Assembly (NCBI GenBank): GCA_051251855.1 | Contig: JBPOGI010000008.1 | Coordinates: 23,250 to 87,249, forward strand | DNA from: Roseibacillus sp. | GTDB taxonomy: Bacteria > Verrucomicrobiota > Verrucomicrobiia > Verrucomicrobiales > Akkermansiaceae | Reading direction: 5' to 3' | Length of the DNA: 64,000 nucleotides | Shown here: positions 8-6,086 of the stretch, one piece after another | How the letters are laid out: the number at the start of each line of letters is the position of its first letter | How positions within the stretch are numbered: the first letter of the stretch is position 1 | The notes under the pieces: model-generated | Database searches by the model: none | What the model was told of the DNA's origin: nothing | Seen by the model: the letters and a program-made list of their open reading frames with translations, nothing else | Made by a program: the position numbers and the translations under genes

Positions 8-1510
8 TCACGCTTCCTCCCTCTCTCTCTCTTTTTCCTTCAGTCTTCCAACCACCTCAATGGCCTTACGCACCTCCACTCGGTCGTCGAAGGTGATCGT
101 CTCGTTCGCAAAAATTTGGTAATCTTCGTGCCCCTTTCCTGCCACGAGAACGATGTCATTGGGCTTCGACATCTCGATGGCCGTTCGAATAGCTTCTCGA
201 CGATCAGGAATGCTCGCGTGCCCTGCACCCATGAAACCCTTCTCAACATCACTGATGATGGAGGCTGGTTCCTCGCCGCGAGGGTTATCTGAAGTCACAA
301 TACAAAAGTCGCTGTCTTTCTCAGCTGCACGCGCCATCGGAGCACGCTTACCTCGGTCGCGACCACCACCACAGCCAAAGACCGTAATGAGTCGTCCGGG
401 CTCCAATTCACGAAGAGTTCGGCAAACATTCTGAACCGCATCTGGGGTGTGAGCGTAATCAACAAAGACTGCCGCACCATCCACCATACCAGCCAACTCA
501 AGACGCCCGGGCACCCCTGCAATGTCCTTCACTGCGGAAATGGCATCGCGCAGTGGAACGCCAATGGCATCGACCGAAGCCAAGGCAGCCAAGGTATTCA
601 AAACATTGAATCGACCGATCAAGGGCACCCGCACAAGAAACGACTTCCCTTTTGCTTCCAAATGAAACTCCATCCCCTTGGCCGATTGCTTAATTCGCCC
701 AGCTTGAAAATCACAATGAGTACCGAAGCCATAGCTCACCAACTTCAAGCGTCCTTCAAAGTCTCTTAATAAATCGGCTCCATAAGAGTCGTCGCCATTG
801 ACCACCGCCACCGCCTTTGAACTTTCTGCGGCCATGCTCGTGAAGAGAATCTTCTTTGCTTCAAAGTAGTTCCCCATCGTCCCGTGATAGTCGAGATGGT
901 CCTGCGTGAGGTTCGTGAAGACTCCCACCTTAAAATTGACTCCTTTCACTCGCCCCTGCTCCAAGCCGTGGGACGACACCTCCATCGCAACTCCGTGGCA
1001 ACCATTGTCGCGCATGCGAGCCAACAGCCCCTGCAACTCAACCGCTCCAGGCGTGGTGTGCGTAGCAGGCGTTACCGTCAATCCATCGTCTACCTGAATA
1101 GTCCCGATCATACCCGCCCGCTGGCGAATGCGCTTAAGAATCTCATGAACCAAGTAGGCAATAGTCGTCTTTCCGTTGGTTCCCGTAATGCCAATGATAT
1201 TGAGGTCTGCCGAGGGAGAACCTGCCTGTAGGTCGGCAAGCACTGCGAGAGCGTCACGTGAATTACTCACTTGAATCCATGTCCCTGCAAAGCTATCCAA
1301 CGGCTCATCTTCAGCAACAATCGCCACCGCCCCACTCTCGATCGCAGTCGCAATGTAGCGATGCCCATCGAACTCGGTTCCTCGCACCGCAACAAACACA
1401 GAGCCGGACTCCACTATACGAGAGTCATCAGTTACTTGTTTCCACACACCTTCGCGTGGCCCGCTAATGCGCGCCTTCGGGAGACAAGGTATAATTTCAG
1501 TTATATTCAT
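8..1510 (-). CDS. murE: UDP-N-acetylmuramoyl-tripeptide synthetase (m-DAP-adding)
   Basis: GITGTNGKTT P-loop, MEVSSH, FTNLTQDHLDYH, DYAHTPDA, SDNPR (DAP-specificity motif), AGKGHE. Its TGA overlaps a GTG that probably starts the next dcw gene beyond the window edge. Confidence 0.97.
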   Translation of the reverse strand: MNITEIIPCLPKARISGPREGVWKQVTDDSRIVESGSVFVAVRGTEFDGHRYIATAIESGAVAIVAEDEPLDSFAGTWIQVSNSRDALAVLADLQAGSPSADLNIIGITGTNGKTTIAYLVHEILKRIRQRAGMIGTIQVDDGLTVTPATHTTPGAVELQGLLARMRDNGCHGVAMEVSSHGLEQGRVKGVNFKVGVFTNLTQDHLDYHGTMGNYFEAKKILFTSMAAESSKAVAVVNGDDSYGADLLRDFEGRLKLVSYGFGTHCDFQAGRIKQSAKGMEFHLEAKGKSFLVRVPLIGRFNVLNTLAALASVDAIGVPLRDAISAVKDIAGVPGRLELAGMVDGAAVFVDYAHTPDAVQNVCRTLRELEPGRLITVFGCGGGRDRGKRAPMARAAEKDSDFCIVTSDNPRGEEPASIISDVEKGFMGAGHASIPDRREAIRTAIEMSKPNDIVLVAGKGHEDYQIFANETITFDDRVEVRKAIEVVGRLKEKEREREEA

Positions 1511-3423
1511 TGGCTTGCTAAAGGCTGCACCACGGTGCGCGTTGGCTTGAGATTCATTGCGGAGGCCAGACGGCCAGCGACTTTGGAAAAAATTGGGGCC
1601 GCAATCGTTCCACCCCCATGAGTCGCATCAGGAGTTTGAGGGTCATCAATCACCACCACACAAACGAACTCGGGATTCTCAACAGGAAGCATTCCGGCAA
1701 ACGAGGCTACCTTACGATTCTTGTCGTATCCCCCATCAATCACCTTCCAGGCCGTCCCAGTTTTGCCTGCAACTCCAAATCCGGGGACCGCCCCTTTGGT
1801 CGCCGTTCCACCGGGTTCGGTGACGGTTGCCAAAGCACGACGCATGTGAGCCGCCGTCTGAGGCGAAACCACCTGTCGAATCATTTCTGGTTCAAAGGAA
1901 TGAATACGTTGACCGTTAGGCATCATTACCGACTTCACTAAGAGCGGCTTCATCAGCTTTCCTCCGTTCGCAATCACGCAATAGGCATTGGCCACCTGAA
2001 GGGGCGTCACGTTCACAGCGTAACCATAACAGCGGGAAGCAAACTCACGGTTATTTGCTGTATGAGGAGTCAGGCCCGCCTGCTCGCCTCCAAGAGAAAT
2101 CCCCGTCCGCTGCCCGAAACCAAAATCGTCCATATAGCGATAGAAACGCTCCCGCCCTAACATCTTAGCAAACTGGAAAGTGCCAATGTTACTCGATTTC
2201 GCTAAAACTTCCCGTAGGGATAACCATCCAAAAGGCATATAATCCTTCACTGGCGGTTTCAACTCATTGCATTCGCCATCGTGGCAAAAAACTCTCGTCC
2301 AAGGATTGGCCAACCCCTCCTCAATCACCGCTGCGGTGGCAATAATCTTAAACGTTGATCCCGGCTCGTAAACGGCCTGCATCGCATAGTTCACCCCGGC
2401 CACTCCTACATTCTCACGCTTATTTAAATCAAAGGTAGGCCGACTCGCCATCGCGAGAACTTCTCCCGTATGAGGATTCATTACCACAATCGCCCCCCGC
2501 TTCGCATGAGCGAAAGCCAAGCCTGCATCGAGTTCCTCTTCCACCAATGCTTGAAAACTCAAGTCGAGACTCAACTGAACATCGAGCCCAGGAATCGGTG
2601 GCTTCACTACTCCACTGGTCTTTCCAAGGCGAAGATTTCGCGCATCCCTCTTGGTCACCTCGTAACCATCCTTACCCTGAAGATACTTTGCTTGGCTTCT
2701 CTCGATTCCTGAAACCCCAACAATGTGCTCTTCTTTTGATCCCTCCCTCACCGGACGAGAACTTCGGATTCCCACCACGTGAGCGCCCAACTTAGGGTTG
2801 GGGTAGATACGACGGTAGCTCTTCCGAAAAATAAGCCCTTGAATACGGTTCTCTCTGGCAGCGGCTTGAATCTTATCCGAAATTTCTTCCGGCACCTTCT
2901 TCGCTAGAATCAAAGGCCGATTAATACGCTTATCGACCGGCCCAACCTTTTCTAACAAATCATCACGGTGCGGATACTCCTTCAAGTGAGGAGTCAAAAT
3001 AGAAGCCAGCAATGAAAGGTGCTGCTGCACAATATCAAGCTTATCGCGAGTCTTCAGAACCTCATCGCTCAAGCCCCCTACAATCTGATCTCTTTGGTGC
3101 TCACTCGCGGTTGACCACTCCTCGCGTAAAACCGCACGAGCATAGGCCACTCCCGGAGCAACCACGGTGGCATCGGTAAGGTGATTGAGGTCTACCGAAA
3201 TTTCTGTGACCGGATTATTACGTGCAATGACTTCTTCATTGCGATCGACGATATACCCATTCTGGGCAAGCAAAGGACGCTTAATAGAACGACCAGGCGA
3301 CGACGAATGAGCATCCTCCTCCGAGTCCCACTGCAGATAAATGAGACGACCCGAAAGCGCGCTGAGCCCAGCTACCAAAGCCAGGCACACAATCAACACT
3401 CGCGCTTGTAGTCCTTTATTCAT
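1507..3423 (-). CDS. ftsI: Class B penicillin-binding protein (FtsI/PBP3-like)
   Basis: N-terminal TM helix, RIYP, EPGSTFK (SxxK), SSN (SxN), KTG; position in dcw cluster. Confidence 0.92.
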   Translation of the reverse strand: MNKGLQARVLIVCLALVAGLSALSGRLIYLQWDSEEDAHSSSPGRSIKRPLLAQNGYIVDRNEEVIARNNPVTEISVDLNHLTDATVVAPGVAYARAVLREEWSTASEHQRDQIVGGLSDEVLKTRDKLDIVQQHLSLLASILTPHLKEYPHRDDLLEKVGPVDKRINRPLILAKKVPEEISDKIQAAARENRIQGLIFRKSYRRIYPNPKLGAHVVGIRSSRPVREGSKEEHIVGVSGIERSQAKYLQGKDGYEVTKRDARNLRLGKTSGVVKPPIPGLDVQLSLDLSFQALVEEELDAGLAFAHAKRGAIVVMNPHTGEVLAMASRPTFDLNKRENVGVAGVNYAMQAVYEPGSTFKIIATAAVIEEGLANPWTRVFCHDGECNELKPPVKDYMPFGWLSLREVLAKSSNIGTFQFAKMLGRERFYRYMDDFGFGQRTGISLGGEQAGLTPHTANNREFASRCYGYAVNVTPLQVANAYCVIANGGKLMKPLLVKSVMMPNGQRIHSFEPEMIRQVVSPQTAAHMRRALATVTEPGGTATKGAVPGFGVAGKTGTAWKVIDGGYDKNRKVASFAGMLPVENPEFVCVVVIDDPQTPDATHGGGTIAAPIFSKVAGRLASAMNLKPTRTVVQPLASQ

Positions 3424-3762
3424 CTATTCAGCTCTGGCCATTTCGGGAACAGTCCCGACAGCGTAGACATCTTCGATTGCTTGCAGTGGAATACCTCTCA
3501 GTTGAGTTTCAGCAGCAACTAGGGAGTTGCGTAGATCCCAACGATTCTCTAATTGCCCTAGGCGAATCTCCAAATTGGTAACATCACGATCGTGCTCTCG
3601 GATCCGACGCTCCACCTGCTCAATCTCGCGAACCACGTTCAACTGTTGATTCTTCATCACAGTATGAAAGACACCCGTTGCACCCAACGAAATAGCGGTG
3701 AGCACCAAGAGGGCAAACACTCCCGGATTCAAACTGGCTCTCTTCTTTTTATTTTTACTCAT
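3424..3762 (-). CDS. ftsL: FtsL-like division protein
   Basis: Basic N-terminus, single TM, coiled coil; located between rsmH and ftsI. Symbol assigned from synteny and topology. Confidence 0.7.
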   Translation of the reverse strand: MSKNKKKRASLNPGVFALLVLTAISLGATGVFHTVMKNQQLNVVREIEQVERRIREHDRDVTNLEIRLGQLENRWDLRNSLVAAETQLRGIPLQAIEDVYAVGTVPEMARAE

Positions 3763-4817
3763 CGTCTTTTAGCGAGTCGTAGCTTTGCGCTTCGCGCGCG
3801 GGTATTACGGGCGAGCTCGGCATCTCCTGCCGAAATCGCTTTGCGAGAAATCAGGTCCCAAGCGAGCTCAGGATTTGGACGTGGCTCAGGCCACTCAGGA
3901 CGGTCGATAAACTCAACACTCCCCTTTTTTAAAAATTGTTTAACGAGGCGATCCTCCAAACTGTGAAAAGTAATCACCGCCAAGATGCCACCAGGCTTCA
4001 GAACATCTTGCGCCGCCTCGAGACCAGCTGTCACCGAGTCCAACTCCGTATTCACCGCCATCCGCAACGCTTGAAAAACTCGCGTAGCAGGATGCTTACG
4101 CCCCCGTCCGCCCATCGTCTTCTCAACACACCCCGCCAACTGCAAAGTGGTAGTAAACTCTTGCTCTTCACGAGCCTTCACAATTGCCGCTGCAATTCGG
4201 CGCGACGCCTTCTCTTCTCCATAGAGAAAGAAAATGTTCGCCAACTCTTCAGCCGATCGCGTGTTCACATAGTCCGCAGCGGTTTCCCCTGCCGACTGAT
4301 TCATCCGCATATCTAGCGGACCTTCTTTTTGAAAGGAAAACCCGCGCTCAGCCTGATCGAGTTGCCAAGATGACACCCCCAAGTCTAACAAGACCCCATC
4401 GACAGACTGCGCGGGCACTACCGAACGCATTTCCGAAAAATTTCCCTGCTCAGCACGAAAGCGATCTCCAAAGACCTCCAGTCGTTTTCCAGCATAGGCG
4501 AGGGCATCGCTATCGCGGTCCATTCCGACGACTTGCGCACCCGACTCTAACAGACGCTCGCTGTGACCACCGCCACCGAGCGTTCCATCAAGAAATAGTT
4601 TATCCTCTGTAGGCTCTAGTCCCGTAAGAGTCTCATCTACCAAAACAGGTTCGTGATAGAACTCACGCTCATTAACTTCCCCACCCTGTTCGGTAGCAGC
4701 AGAGCTTTGAAAAACGTGACCCCGCCATTCCGGCACCACCGATTCCACCGTCCGTCGTATAACGGCAAGGCAGTCGGAGAAGTCGGCAAATGCCGGAATG
4801 AATGCGGGTGTCAGCAT
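3759..4817 (-). CDS. rsmH: 16S rRNA m4C1402 methyltransferase with N-terminal extension
   Basis: HEPVL, DGTLGGGGHS, DLGVSSWQLD, RGFSF, PLDMRM, HPATRVFQALR, ITFHSLEDR, RARSAKLR. Nearest in-frame ATG upstream of the conserved domain is 4817; start uncertain. Confidence 0.95.
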   Translation of the reverse strand: MLTPAFIPAFADFSDCLAVIRRTVESVVPEWRGHVFQSSAATEQGGEVNEREFYHEPVLVDETLTGLEPTEDKLFLDGTLGGGGHSERLLESGAQVVGMDRDSDALAYAGKRLEVFGDRFRAEQGNFSEMRSVVPAQSVDGVLLDLGVSSWQLDQAERGFSFQKEGPLDMRMNQSAGETAADYVNTRSAEELANIFFLYGEEKASRRIAAAIVKAREEQEFTTTLQLAGCVEKTMGGRGRKHPATRVFQALRMAVNTELDSVTAGLEAAQDVLKPGGILAVITFHSLEDRLVKQFLKKGSVEFIDRPEWPEPRPNPELAWDLISRKAISAGDAELARNTRARSAKLRLAKRR

Positions 4818-5350
4818 GTTTTTCAGTGTTCCAATCCTGTTTTTATCCAGTAAATCCAGTAGCTCGAGGGAGGTCCGCGACCTGCCCCTCACGCAAAATT
4901 TTGAAATAACGGAAAGCTGCCACCCCAAGCCCACGCTCGCACAGCGTCGCAAATCTCTGACCGGCAAGGCAGATGGCTTGCGCCGCGCGAAACAGCAGGT
5001 TTTGGGGTGACAACAGTGTTCCAGTTATCCAGTTATCCAGTAAAGTCGTCGGGAAACTGCCACCACTCCGGGCCTCACGAAGGCCCTCTCCTGACTTGAA
5101 AGTCCTTTTGGCAAGGCAGTCTTGCCGAGAGGAGGCTCTCGATTCGCGCCGGAGTGGCAGCATTGTTCCAGTGTTCCAGTTATCCAGTAAAGTCGTTGGG
5201 AAATCAGACAGGAGGACGCCGCCACCCCAAGCCTCGCAAAGGCCCGTTTTCAGCAGAAAGCACCTTTCGGCAAGGCAATCGTGCTGAGTCAGGGTTTTCG
5301 CTTGGTTTTGAGGTGACGACATTGTTCCAGTGTTCCAGTTATCCAGTAAA
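4708..5350 (-). ncRNA. Array of four putative structured RNA units separated by (ACTGGA)n linkers
   Basis: Units at 5217-5321, 5058-5162, 4916-5014 and ~4708-4825. Closing stems covary. TGCCTTGCC at 5269-5277, 5110-5118, 4963-4971 and 4764-4772. The repeat is directly visible; RNA function is inferred. Confidence 0.65.
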
Positions 5351-5355
5351 TTCAT
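4843..5355 (-). CDS. Possible 170-aa leader ORF reading through three repeat units
   Basis: ATG 11 nt after the mraZ stop; repeat spacings of 159 and 147 nt keep the frame (LLDNWxTGT...CLA three times). May be a by-product of the nucleotide repeat. Confidence 0.3.
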   Translation of the reverse strand: MNLLDNWNTGTMSSPQNQAKTLTQHDCLAERCFLLKTGLCEAWGGGVLLSDFPTTLLDNWNTGTMLPLRRESRASSRQDCLAKRTFKSGEGLREARSGGSFPTTLLDNWITGTLLSPQNLLFRAAQAICLAGQRFATLCERGLGVAAFRYFKILREGQVADLPRATGFTG

Positions 5356-5366
5356 TCTTAAGCCCC

Positions 5367-5834
5367 TTACCCAAAGTCGACTGAGTCGTAGAGGTCTTCC
5401 AAAATCTGCGCTTCCTTCGCGCGCAGTTCTTCCACATTCTTCGGAGCCACCAAATCAAAGGCTGCTCCCCGTCCAAAAAGGTGTACTGACTCCCCCGCTT
5501 CGAATCCGTGAGCACTCGCGGTCTTTTTTGGCACCGCCAACTTGCCCTGGTCATTCAAAGTCACTGACTCGCTGCCCGAGTACACCGCCTGCTTCTGCGC
5601 ATTTCGCGTTCCGGCAGGAATGGCCTCATTAGAAGCAATCGATTCAATAACAGCCTCGAAGGCCTCTTGGGTCATCGCCCGCAGAACCGGAACTTTCAGA
5701 TGCTTCCACTTCAAAAGTCGCAACTGAACCGTCTGTCCACTCGCAGGGCGCCAAGCGGAAGGCACGGAAACTCGATACTTACTATCAAGTTTATGCTCAA
5801 CAACGCCTTCAAGGCTCTGGTTTGGTACACCCAC
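5367..5834 (-). CDS. mraZ: Division/cell-wall cluster transcriptional regulator MraZ
   Basis: Two AbrB-like repeats (HKLDSKYRVSVP; TLNDQGKLAVP); first gene of the dcw cluster. GTG start at 5834 is a best guess. Confidence 0.88.
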   Translation of the reverse strand: MGVPNQSLEGVVEHKLDSKYRVSVPSAWRPASGQTVQLRLLKWKHLKVPVLRAMTQEAFEAVIESIASNEAIPAGTRNAQKQAVYSGSESVTLNDQGKLAVPKKTASAHGFEAGESVHLFGRGAAFDLVAPKNVEELRAKEAQILEDLYDSVDFG

Positions 5835-6086
5835 GGTTTCTCTTGGTTCCTTACGGTGCACAGTAGTACACAATTTGACCCTACACGGTCAATCTCTTTG
5901 TTTTCAGTACACTTCGCATTGCTTAACAATCCTTGCTAGCACAATGTTTTTAAAACTTTTACTTCGTGTCAGCGGATTATTAATAAAACTTAATTAAACT
6001 GCTGAACAGCCCACGCAGCGTCAGCATTTGCTCCTCTCTGGCACCCTTTGCCGTTTCTTTTTTTTAAAACGAGGCCAGCCTTCCCC

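Follow-up and report, generated by a model that had tools for sequence, protein, structure and literature searches.

A conserved array of putatively translated hairpin units between mraZ and rsmH in Roseibacillus

Results

Genes and features at the head of the division cluster

The window analysed here is a stretch of 64,000 nucleotides from a Roseibacillus sp. genome (assembly GCA_051251855.1, contig JBPOGI010000008.1), the minus strand of which carries the head of a cluster of genes for division and the cell wall in the order mraZ, a 550-nt gap, rsmH, an ftsL-like gene, ftsI and murE (Table 1). The rsmH/ftsL-like and ftsI/murE junctions overlap by ATGA, and the ftsL-like gene and ftsI abut. 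We take the names of these three downstream genes from their position and from familiar motifs; the ftsL-like frame, the only one of the three that was scanned, gave no match to FtsL. The mraZ reading frame matches the Pfam MraZ family weakly (E=0.024), and its assignment also rests on its place at the cluster head and on homologues preceding rsmH in relatives. GTG(T/C)AC boxes at 10-nt spacing upstream of mraZ are common to six genera. Lying over the predicted mraZ promoter, which a strict sigma-70 scan did not call, they are likely to form a family-specific operator at which MraZ would act.

RsmH carries an N-terminal extension of 52 residues ahead of its methyltransferase domain. Close relatives, at 80-87% identity, are in records named Roseibacillus, amongst them the cultured, non-pathogenic R. 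persicicus, which has a four-unit array of its own and whose RsmH orthologue is annotated at 352 aa with a start identical to unit 4. A second, distant rsmH paralogue (36-42% identity) was seen in 15 of 61 genomes (G020, G029, G032, G033, G036 and ten of other families). The product of the open reading frame upstream of rsmH (uORF) has no Pfam match, and its exact sequence is absent from the protein collection.

Table 1. Features of the mraZ-rsmH region and the adjoining genes, in window coordinates
Feature	Coordinates	Strand	Details
Predicted mraZ promoter region	5856..5912	-	TTGACC 5892-5887; GTG(T/C)AC boxes 5912, 5871, 5861
mraZ	5367..5834	-	Start likely GTG 5834; longest ORF from TTG 5873
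uORF, 159 codons, through units 1-3	4843..5322	-	170 codons if from ATG 5355
Unit 1 leader	5323..5350	-	Three CTGGA boxes, 8-nt period, mostly unpaired in predicted folds
Unit 1 hairpin	5216..5322	-	Starts at uORF ATG; motif 5277-5269; z -4.25; covariation
Unit 2	5057..5191	-	Leader 5191-5164, hairpin 5163-5057, motif 5118-5110; duplicate of unit-1 type
Unit 3	4914..5044	-	Leader 5044-5017, hairpin 5016-4914, motif 4971-4963
Unit 4 leader	4818..4854	-	Contains uORF stop TAA 4845-4843
Unit 4 hairpin	4712..4817	-	Equals rsmH codons 1-35; motif 4772-4764; z -5.01
rsmH (mraW), 352 aa	3759..4817	-	Pfam PF01795 at residues 53-351
Downstream genes	8..3762	-	ftsL-like 3762-3424, ftsI 3423-1507, murE 1510-8

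Four hairpin units share a fixed codon-to-motif spacing

The gap and the first codons of rsmH hold four units, each of which folds better than all 200 of its shuffles (z -3.9 to -5.0) and contains a motif of 9 bases, TGCCTTGCC, with the genus form GCCUUG(C/U)(C/U). A preliminary description of the window had placed this motif 45 nt from the codon at the stem base in all four units (ATG 5322 to 5277, ATG 5163 to 5118, CTG 5016 to 4971 and ATG 4817 to 4772). We could reproduce this spacing, together with the four 18-residue readings M/L-x13-[DI]CLA exactly as given there and the 170-codon frame, which begins 11 nt past the mraZ stop and ends 25 nt ahead of ATG 4817. The intervening sequence, described there as divergent, is indeed so: over positions 14-45 the units share 7-17 of 32 bases, and the fixed length is thus not plain copy identity.

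In a BLAST search of the genome the units matched nowhere else, and TGCCTTGCC alone was found 49 times. Searches of viral contigs returned 23 pattern matches in one case (none better than a model E of 0.26) and 0 in another, none of them supported. A dispersed repeat or mobile element was rejected, as there are no unit copies elsewhere in the genome and no supported phage copies. In metagenomes a strict pattern gave 0 matches, and a relaxed one gave 120 loci, a single one of them beside rsmH (L181, ATG at -45) and the others chance-like. Weak covariance-model matches in other genera of the family (g5, g6, g8) and on contig C7 of the source genome are not at rsmH and look unrelated. At G000:C7:590103-590184, behind an unrelated gene, two leader-like 8-nt repeats precede a terminator-like hairpin, a weak model match that is probably unrelated as well.

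The units descend from old duplications of the rsmH start module

The genus set comprised nine genomes, eight of them with the region; G003, where only the rsmH end is present, was left out, and one spurious TGCTTTGCT match in L003 was left out of the unit rows. The array has three or four hairpin copies, with 2-4 motif units per genome, and the motif units of the eight genomes add up to 27, of which 8 come first, 12 are internal and 7 lie at rsmH. The distance from the stem-base codon to the motif is 45 nt in 25 of the 27 and 42 nt in the other two, so that the spacing, called invariant in the preliminary description, is so for the four units of the window but not across the genus. Both 42-nt units cluster together in the unit tree (98/97), so that a single deletion is involved; the spacing is conserved and alters by a triplet only, and variable, non-triplet spacing was not seen amongst these units. 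The 3' arm, as set by the folding register, measures 57, 59, 60 or 61 nt in 26 of 27 units. Within the genus the 5' arm changed in length once and the 3' arm about five times, events too few to prove that the 5' arm is more constrained and suggestive only.

In the unit tree, in which 12 of 26 inner branches are unresolved, the grouping largely follows a unit's position and not its genome, which indicates that the duplications are old. Unit 3 forms its own orthologous class across the genus, as a clade of 8 rows with support 96/100. Every orthologous class has retained motif and leader, and the arms have diverged to near-random identity. As old duplicates, the units repeat the start module of rsmH, which consists of a leader, an AUG and a covarying hairpin of about 105 nt. 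In L005 (G005) the rsmH unit has lost the motif and the leader and has kept a different long inverted repeat, which makes this rsmH start a natural control for function.

The array is conserved as RNA and not as peptide

In the 12 unit-1 and unit-2 sequences, 92% of cells pair and double changes occur at 16 of 27 pairs, a number as high as which was found in 0 of 500 shuffles, with 3-6 pairs in slid controls; because the structure was taken from the tested alignment and the sequences are kin, we treat this covariation as support and not as a probability. Covariation is also present in the remaining unit classes, including the unit 4 hairpin class with double changes at 8 of 25 consensus pairs. 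The register in which the motif pairs differs between the classes, with no single fold, which suggests that the motif is probably read as sequence. Base composition is asymmetric, the 5' arms being C-rich (339 C, 226 G) and the 3' arms G-rich (355 G, 177 C). A search within mraZ-rsmH for a cis pairing partner gave top duplex sites that differ among the 8 genomes.

The codons of the motif were counted over 29 units, the 27 of the genus and two from genus g9. The first reads TGC in 25, AGC in 2, CGC in 1 and GCC in 1; the second CTT in 28 and TTT in 1; the third GCC in 23, GCT in 4 and GTC in 2. The comparison of synonymous with non-synonymous change that the preliminary description had proposed thus returns 7 amino-acid-changing substitutions and, in the first two codons, 0 synonymous ones. 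Residues change (C to S, R or A; L to F; A to V) and synonymous positions are fixed: it is the nucleotides of the motif that are conserved, not the residues CLA. At other genera's loci the same position reads TWRE or SSFN.

Over the uORF, the differences among four genomes are spread evenly across codon positions 1/2/3 (309/303/291; pN/pS 0.68-1.05), whereas the RsmH core of the same four genomes shows 254/107/961 differences and a pN/pS of 0.10-0.16. There is no amino-acid selection on the uORF. Stalling on a leader peptide, offered in the preliminary description, does not agree with this lack of codon-position bias, with the pN/pS values, or with a motif that varies at the amino-acid level. 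Synonymous divergence is 0.23-0.47 in the uORF, about half that of the RsmH core (0.65-0.82).

The upstream frame is open in all genomes, but internal start codons are not kept

Read from the unit-1 ATG, the frame runs without a stop across every upstream unit in 8 of 8 genomes, over 90-168 codons, with each upstream motif in frame. Since ATG 5355 is not kept in relatives, the conserved frame is the 159 codons from 5322. Base shuffles of the uORF were open in 0-137 of 3000 cases. Of the 18 upstream units whose arm is 45 nt long, none contains an in-frame stop; the other two frames have stops in 8 and 7 of 18, and column-resampled units in 47%. These comparisons argue for selection to hold the upstream frame open.

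ATG is kept at unit 1 in 8/8 and at rsmH in 7/7 genomes, and only these two positions keep AUG. The equivalent codon of the 12 internal units is ATG in 2, CTG in 4, TTG in 2 and GTG, ACG, AAA and GAG in 1 each, and the stem of the AAA unit is compensated. Initiation at all four codons, as first proposed, finds no support in the codons of the internal units or in this compensated stem; with AUG kept only at unit 1 and rsmH, the ruler is better understood as the length of a hairpin arm than as a series of four initiation sites. Moreover, the first base of the internal codon can be any of the four letters and the next two are paired in the stem, so an NTG there needs no initiation.

In the 8 genomes the uORF stop lies at -25, -25, -25, +7, -38, -60, -56 and -17 relative to the rsmH ATG, and rsmH is in frame 1, 1, 1, 2, 2, 0, 2 and 2 relative to the uORF. 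A programmed frameshift into rsmH was rejected, as the frames differ and a common slippery site was not seen. A general ribosome-binding signal was likewise discarded, since the leader words are not enriched before 1154 crude starts.

Start hairpins recur at rsmH in other genera of the family

In most loci of g1, g5, g8, g9, g11, g14, g15, g17, g18 and g20 we predict a long hairpin whose axis lies near +46 to +55, counted from the rsmH ATG, and in g12, g13, g3, g19, g6 and g7 a stable rsmH start hairpin is not predicted (z -1.5 to +0.8). The tip motif differs by genus and begins at +42 to +48: at 42 in g9 (2/2) and in all 9 pattern-matching loci of the 20 in g20, at 45 or 48 in 9 of 12 loci of g11, and at about 45 in g8. 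The 26 loci of g15, many of them from close kin, contain 21 motifs in the RsmH frame, with an ATG at -45 in 21/21 and a loop sequence that differs from that of Roseibacillus; two further loci are without a match and two have a single motif outside the computed frame. A separate upstream copy is present in 19 of the 26, with an in-frame GTG at -75, ATG (9) or CCG (10) at -45, and a stop 15-54 codons past the loop. The spacing recurs family-wide with differing loops and, in the duplicates of two genera, outlives the loss of the start codon.

The mraZ-rsmH gap of g15 (L229, L230, L231, L233, L325-L342) has its own, separate duplication of two units, in which the loop is G-rich, the leader has a 10-nt period and the uORF starts with GTG. 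Many of its loci have a short out-of-frame ATG about 23 nt ahead of the rsmH ATG, and on the reverse strand the g15 leader resembles the mraZ promoter boxes. In g5, g8, g14, g16 and g13 different hairpin repeats continue in frame into RsmH, and the arrays of two-hairpin modules there make RsmH extensions of about 100-315 aa (L013-L017, L023, L198-L217, L244, L245).

Comparison with known RNA elements

An Rfam scan of 4400-5700 at E<=5 gave two chance-level matches only, and a literature search did not find a description of the array, though supplements of motif-survey papers may hold one. The closest analogue is the actinobacterial mraW motif (RF01746), whose long, irregular hairpin sits directly 5' of mraW/rsmH and bears a short conserved, pyrimidine-rich motif at the tip, as laid out in the available text of PMC2864571 and in tables in the accessible part of PMC3890552; in C. 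diphtheriae it lies upstream of the mraW start site (PMC5784534, in the portion available). The Roseibacillus units likewise place a long hairpin immediately 5' of the mraW domain. Their tip motif is GCCUUG(C/U)(C/U) as opposed to CUUCCCC (PMC2864571), and unlike the mraW motif the array has 3-4 copies, is probably translated and carries 8-nt leader repeats. The RF01746 model gave no score in 5 family genomes (E<=1) or in the window region, and the control in C. glutamicum did score.

The in-frame rsmH arrays of g5, g8, g14, g16 and g13 share the family, the operon position and translated hairpins conserved as RNA, and their first hairpin at the rsmH AUG looks homologous to the Roseibacillus start hairpin. 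They are nevertheless two-hairpin modules with other loops, fused to RsmH in open frames of up to 743 aa, whereas in Roseibacillus duplication has placed copies of the entire start module in a separate uORF, and the covariance model of these units does not match the in-frame arrays. Bacterial SECIS elements are in-frame translated hairpins with the loop at a fixed distance from the codon held in the ribosome. For the Roseibacillus units this can be an analogy only, as there is no UGA recoding and the anchor would be the start codon or the helix base. Same-operon precedents are the E. coli decRNAs and FtsO, which, as far as the available parts of PMC6156199 and PMC7815308 describe them, overlap real proteins, are single copy and Hfq-linked; the Roseibacillus frame is without amino-acid selection and Hfq was not found in the 5 genomes searched. 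The array does share with decRNAs a depressed synonymous change over a stable fold.

With attenuators and arrest peptides the array has in common a conserved open leader ORF with a kept start (8/8 genomes); conserved peptide or control codons were not found, and between 5355 and 4700 there is no intrinsic terminator. CsrA sites have the consensus ANGGA. A CsrB-type RNA binding CsrA/RsmA was rejected, as CsrA was not found in 5/5 genomes and the boxes read CUGGA. The leader repeats were also rejected as an MraZ operator, their period being 8 nt as against the 10 nt of the GTG(T/C)AC promoter boxes.

The preliminary description had further speculated that GCCUUG mimics 16S rRNA just 5' of the RsmH target C1402. 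In the lineage this falls away: Roseibacillus 16S reads GUCUUG there, and GGGTCTTGTAC precedes C1402 in 3/3 family 16S genes (from two Roseibacillus genomes and one g15 genome, the assembly of the source genome being without 16S). With the matching word absent and RsmH acting in vitro on 30S subunits and not on naked 16S rRNA, as the available text of PMC2831307 has it, mimicry is unsupported. Of 44 comparisons of motifs with lineage 16S and 23S rRNA, for mimicry or pairing, 1 reached p<0.05: a ten-base identity of the leader repeat (5323-5339) with 16S 308-317 (L259), at p=0.03 uncorrected.

Discussion

The array is a real, conserved structured-RNA element of the rsmH-leader hairpin kind, and its 45-nt spacing is best read as the conserved arm length of a translated hairpin that starts at the rsmH start. 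Of the alternatives left by the preliminary description, which were a ribosome-dependent mechanism or a length-measuring complex, the array is best read as an RNA element that depends on length and is translationally coupled, and leader-peptide stalling is unsupported. What the array does is a more tentative matter. Judging from sequence, we lean towards a translated cis-element that gates rsmH and the coupled division genes, although we would put this at somewhat less than an even chance. Ribosomes leaving mraZ would restart at unit 1, 29-44 nt past the mraZ stop, unfold the peptide-neutral hairpins and terminate close to the rsmH start (-60 to +7 nt); that start would be occluded by the last hairpin and would head a series of coupled, essential genes. 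The 45 nt would then measure an arm that sets the motif at a fixed distance from the helix base for a partner, in which case additional copies would mean more sites for binding or pausing. Being translated would also shield the array from Rho, for which two genes are present in 5/5 family genomes (G000:C1:50760-50975, G000:C9:334661-334873). In Verrucomicrobium spinosum rsmH is dispensable and the remainder of the cluster essential, according to the available text of PMC12283558, which would fit control aimed downstream. The place of the uORF stop varies, which speaks little for tight coupling, and the fixed spacing could also reflect common descent together with a low indel rate of a translated hairpin and the limits set by frame and stem.

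The repeated layout of a leader plus a stable stem would equally suit processing or decay, in which an RNase cuts the unpaired leaders to release stable 147-159-nt hairpin RNAs that protect the dcw mRNA or act as trans sponges via the motif, translation only timing the cutting. RNase E/G and RNase III were found in 5/5 genomes (the N-terminal domain of RNase Y in none of the five), a sponge would scale with copy number, and in the available accounts the E. coli mraZ-murE operon gives four decay-generated RNAs (PMC6156199) and FtsO sponges RybB (PMC7815308). Hfq, however, was not found in the 5/5 genomes searched, 14 intergenic complement sites of the own genome offer no obvious partner RNA, and the fixed AUG-to-motif distance in rsmH units would be left unexplained; we regard processing as unlikely, if still worth serious attention. 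Less probable again is control of elongation where the long dcw operon begins, with hairpins or motif pausing or protecting RNA polymerase, or masking C-rich sites for the loading of Rho. Ribosome and polymerase couple at a distance of about 40-47 nt, to which the 45 nt would correspond, and the C-rich 5' and G-rich 3' arms and the two Rho genes point the same way. Yet the array has no intrinsic terminator, its loops differ between genera although polymerase is conserved, and the C/G asymmetry follows from the stem itself.

Feedback by RsmH, which would bind the hairpins, or whose missing methyl mark would let ribosomes initiate differently there, seems to us distinctly improbable. The long conserved-loop hairpin that also precedes mraW in Actinobacteria (PMC2864571), the rise of non-AUG initiation on RsmH loss (PMC2831307), both as given in the parts available, and the near-cognate codon of 8/12 internal units would agree with it. 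Against it stand the absence of the proposed mimic word from lineage 16S, the single rRNA comparison below p=0.05, the requirement of RsmH for the 30S particle (PMC2831307) and the stem-paired internal codons, at which NTG calls for no initiation. That the units are tolerated relics, old rsmH-start duplicates whose function is limited to holding the frame open, is very unlikely: copy number does vary (2-4 motif units), the motif is lost at rsmH in one genome and the hairpin is absent in several genera, but motif and leader are kept per class while the arms diverge, changes are compensatory and g15 has a separate duplication. Stalling or attenuation by an M-x13-DCLA peptide has in its favour only that the motif is always in frame and that AUG is kept at unit 1 and rsmH; with amino-acid selection absent, residues changing, synonymous positions fixed and TWRE or SSFN at the motif place elsewhere, it is hardly credible.

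A more specific version of a ribosome-linked element, a model that we consider improbable, is a ruler anchored at the start codon. Its core stem begins at about +15 to +19, the place of the entry channel of an initiating ribosome, and the fixed arm would bring the lineage-specific loop, or a bound factor (possibly RsmH), to a set 30S site, reporting the state of the ribosome to the translationally coupled ftsL-ftsI-murE and being tuned by copy number in at least 3 separate amplifications in one family. It would link ribosome maturation to cell division. As for why rsmH, a dispensable rRNA methyltransferase gene, heads an essential division cluster, the rsmH start presents a structured RNA that is conserved, has an arm of fixed length and a genus-specific loop, and is amplified separately in several genera with the frame open each time. 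The uORF start, the arm length and the motif are mutable features with which to ask if translation, or the state of the ribosome, is coupled at this locus to the division genes. The array may also bear on the actinobacterial mraW motif, whose role is only presumed in the available accounts.

Two further peculiarities of rsmH were seen in relatives. In 7 loci of g11 (L218, L221-L226) the open rsmH frame reaches 252-284 codons further upstream than the core and crosses mraZ in a different frame; either an overlapping frame or a fusion by frameshift could account for this. In L238 and L239 (g3) and L247 (g19), RsmH has an N-terminal extension of 137-214 residues without a stable start hairpin, which may be a fused protein domain.
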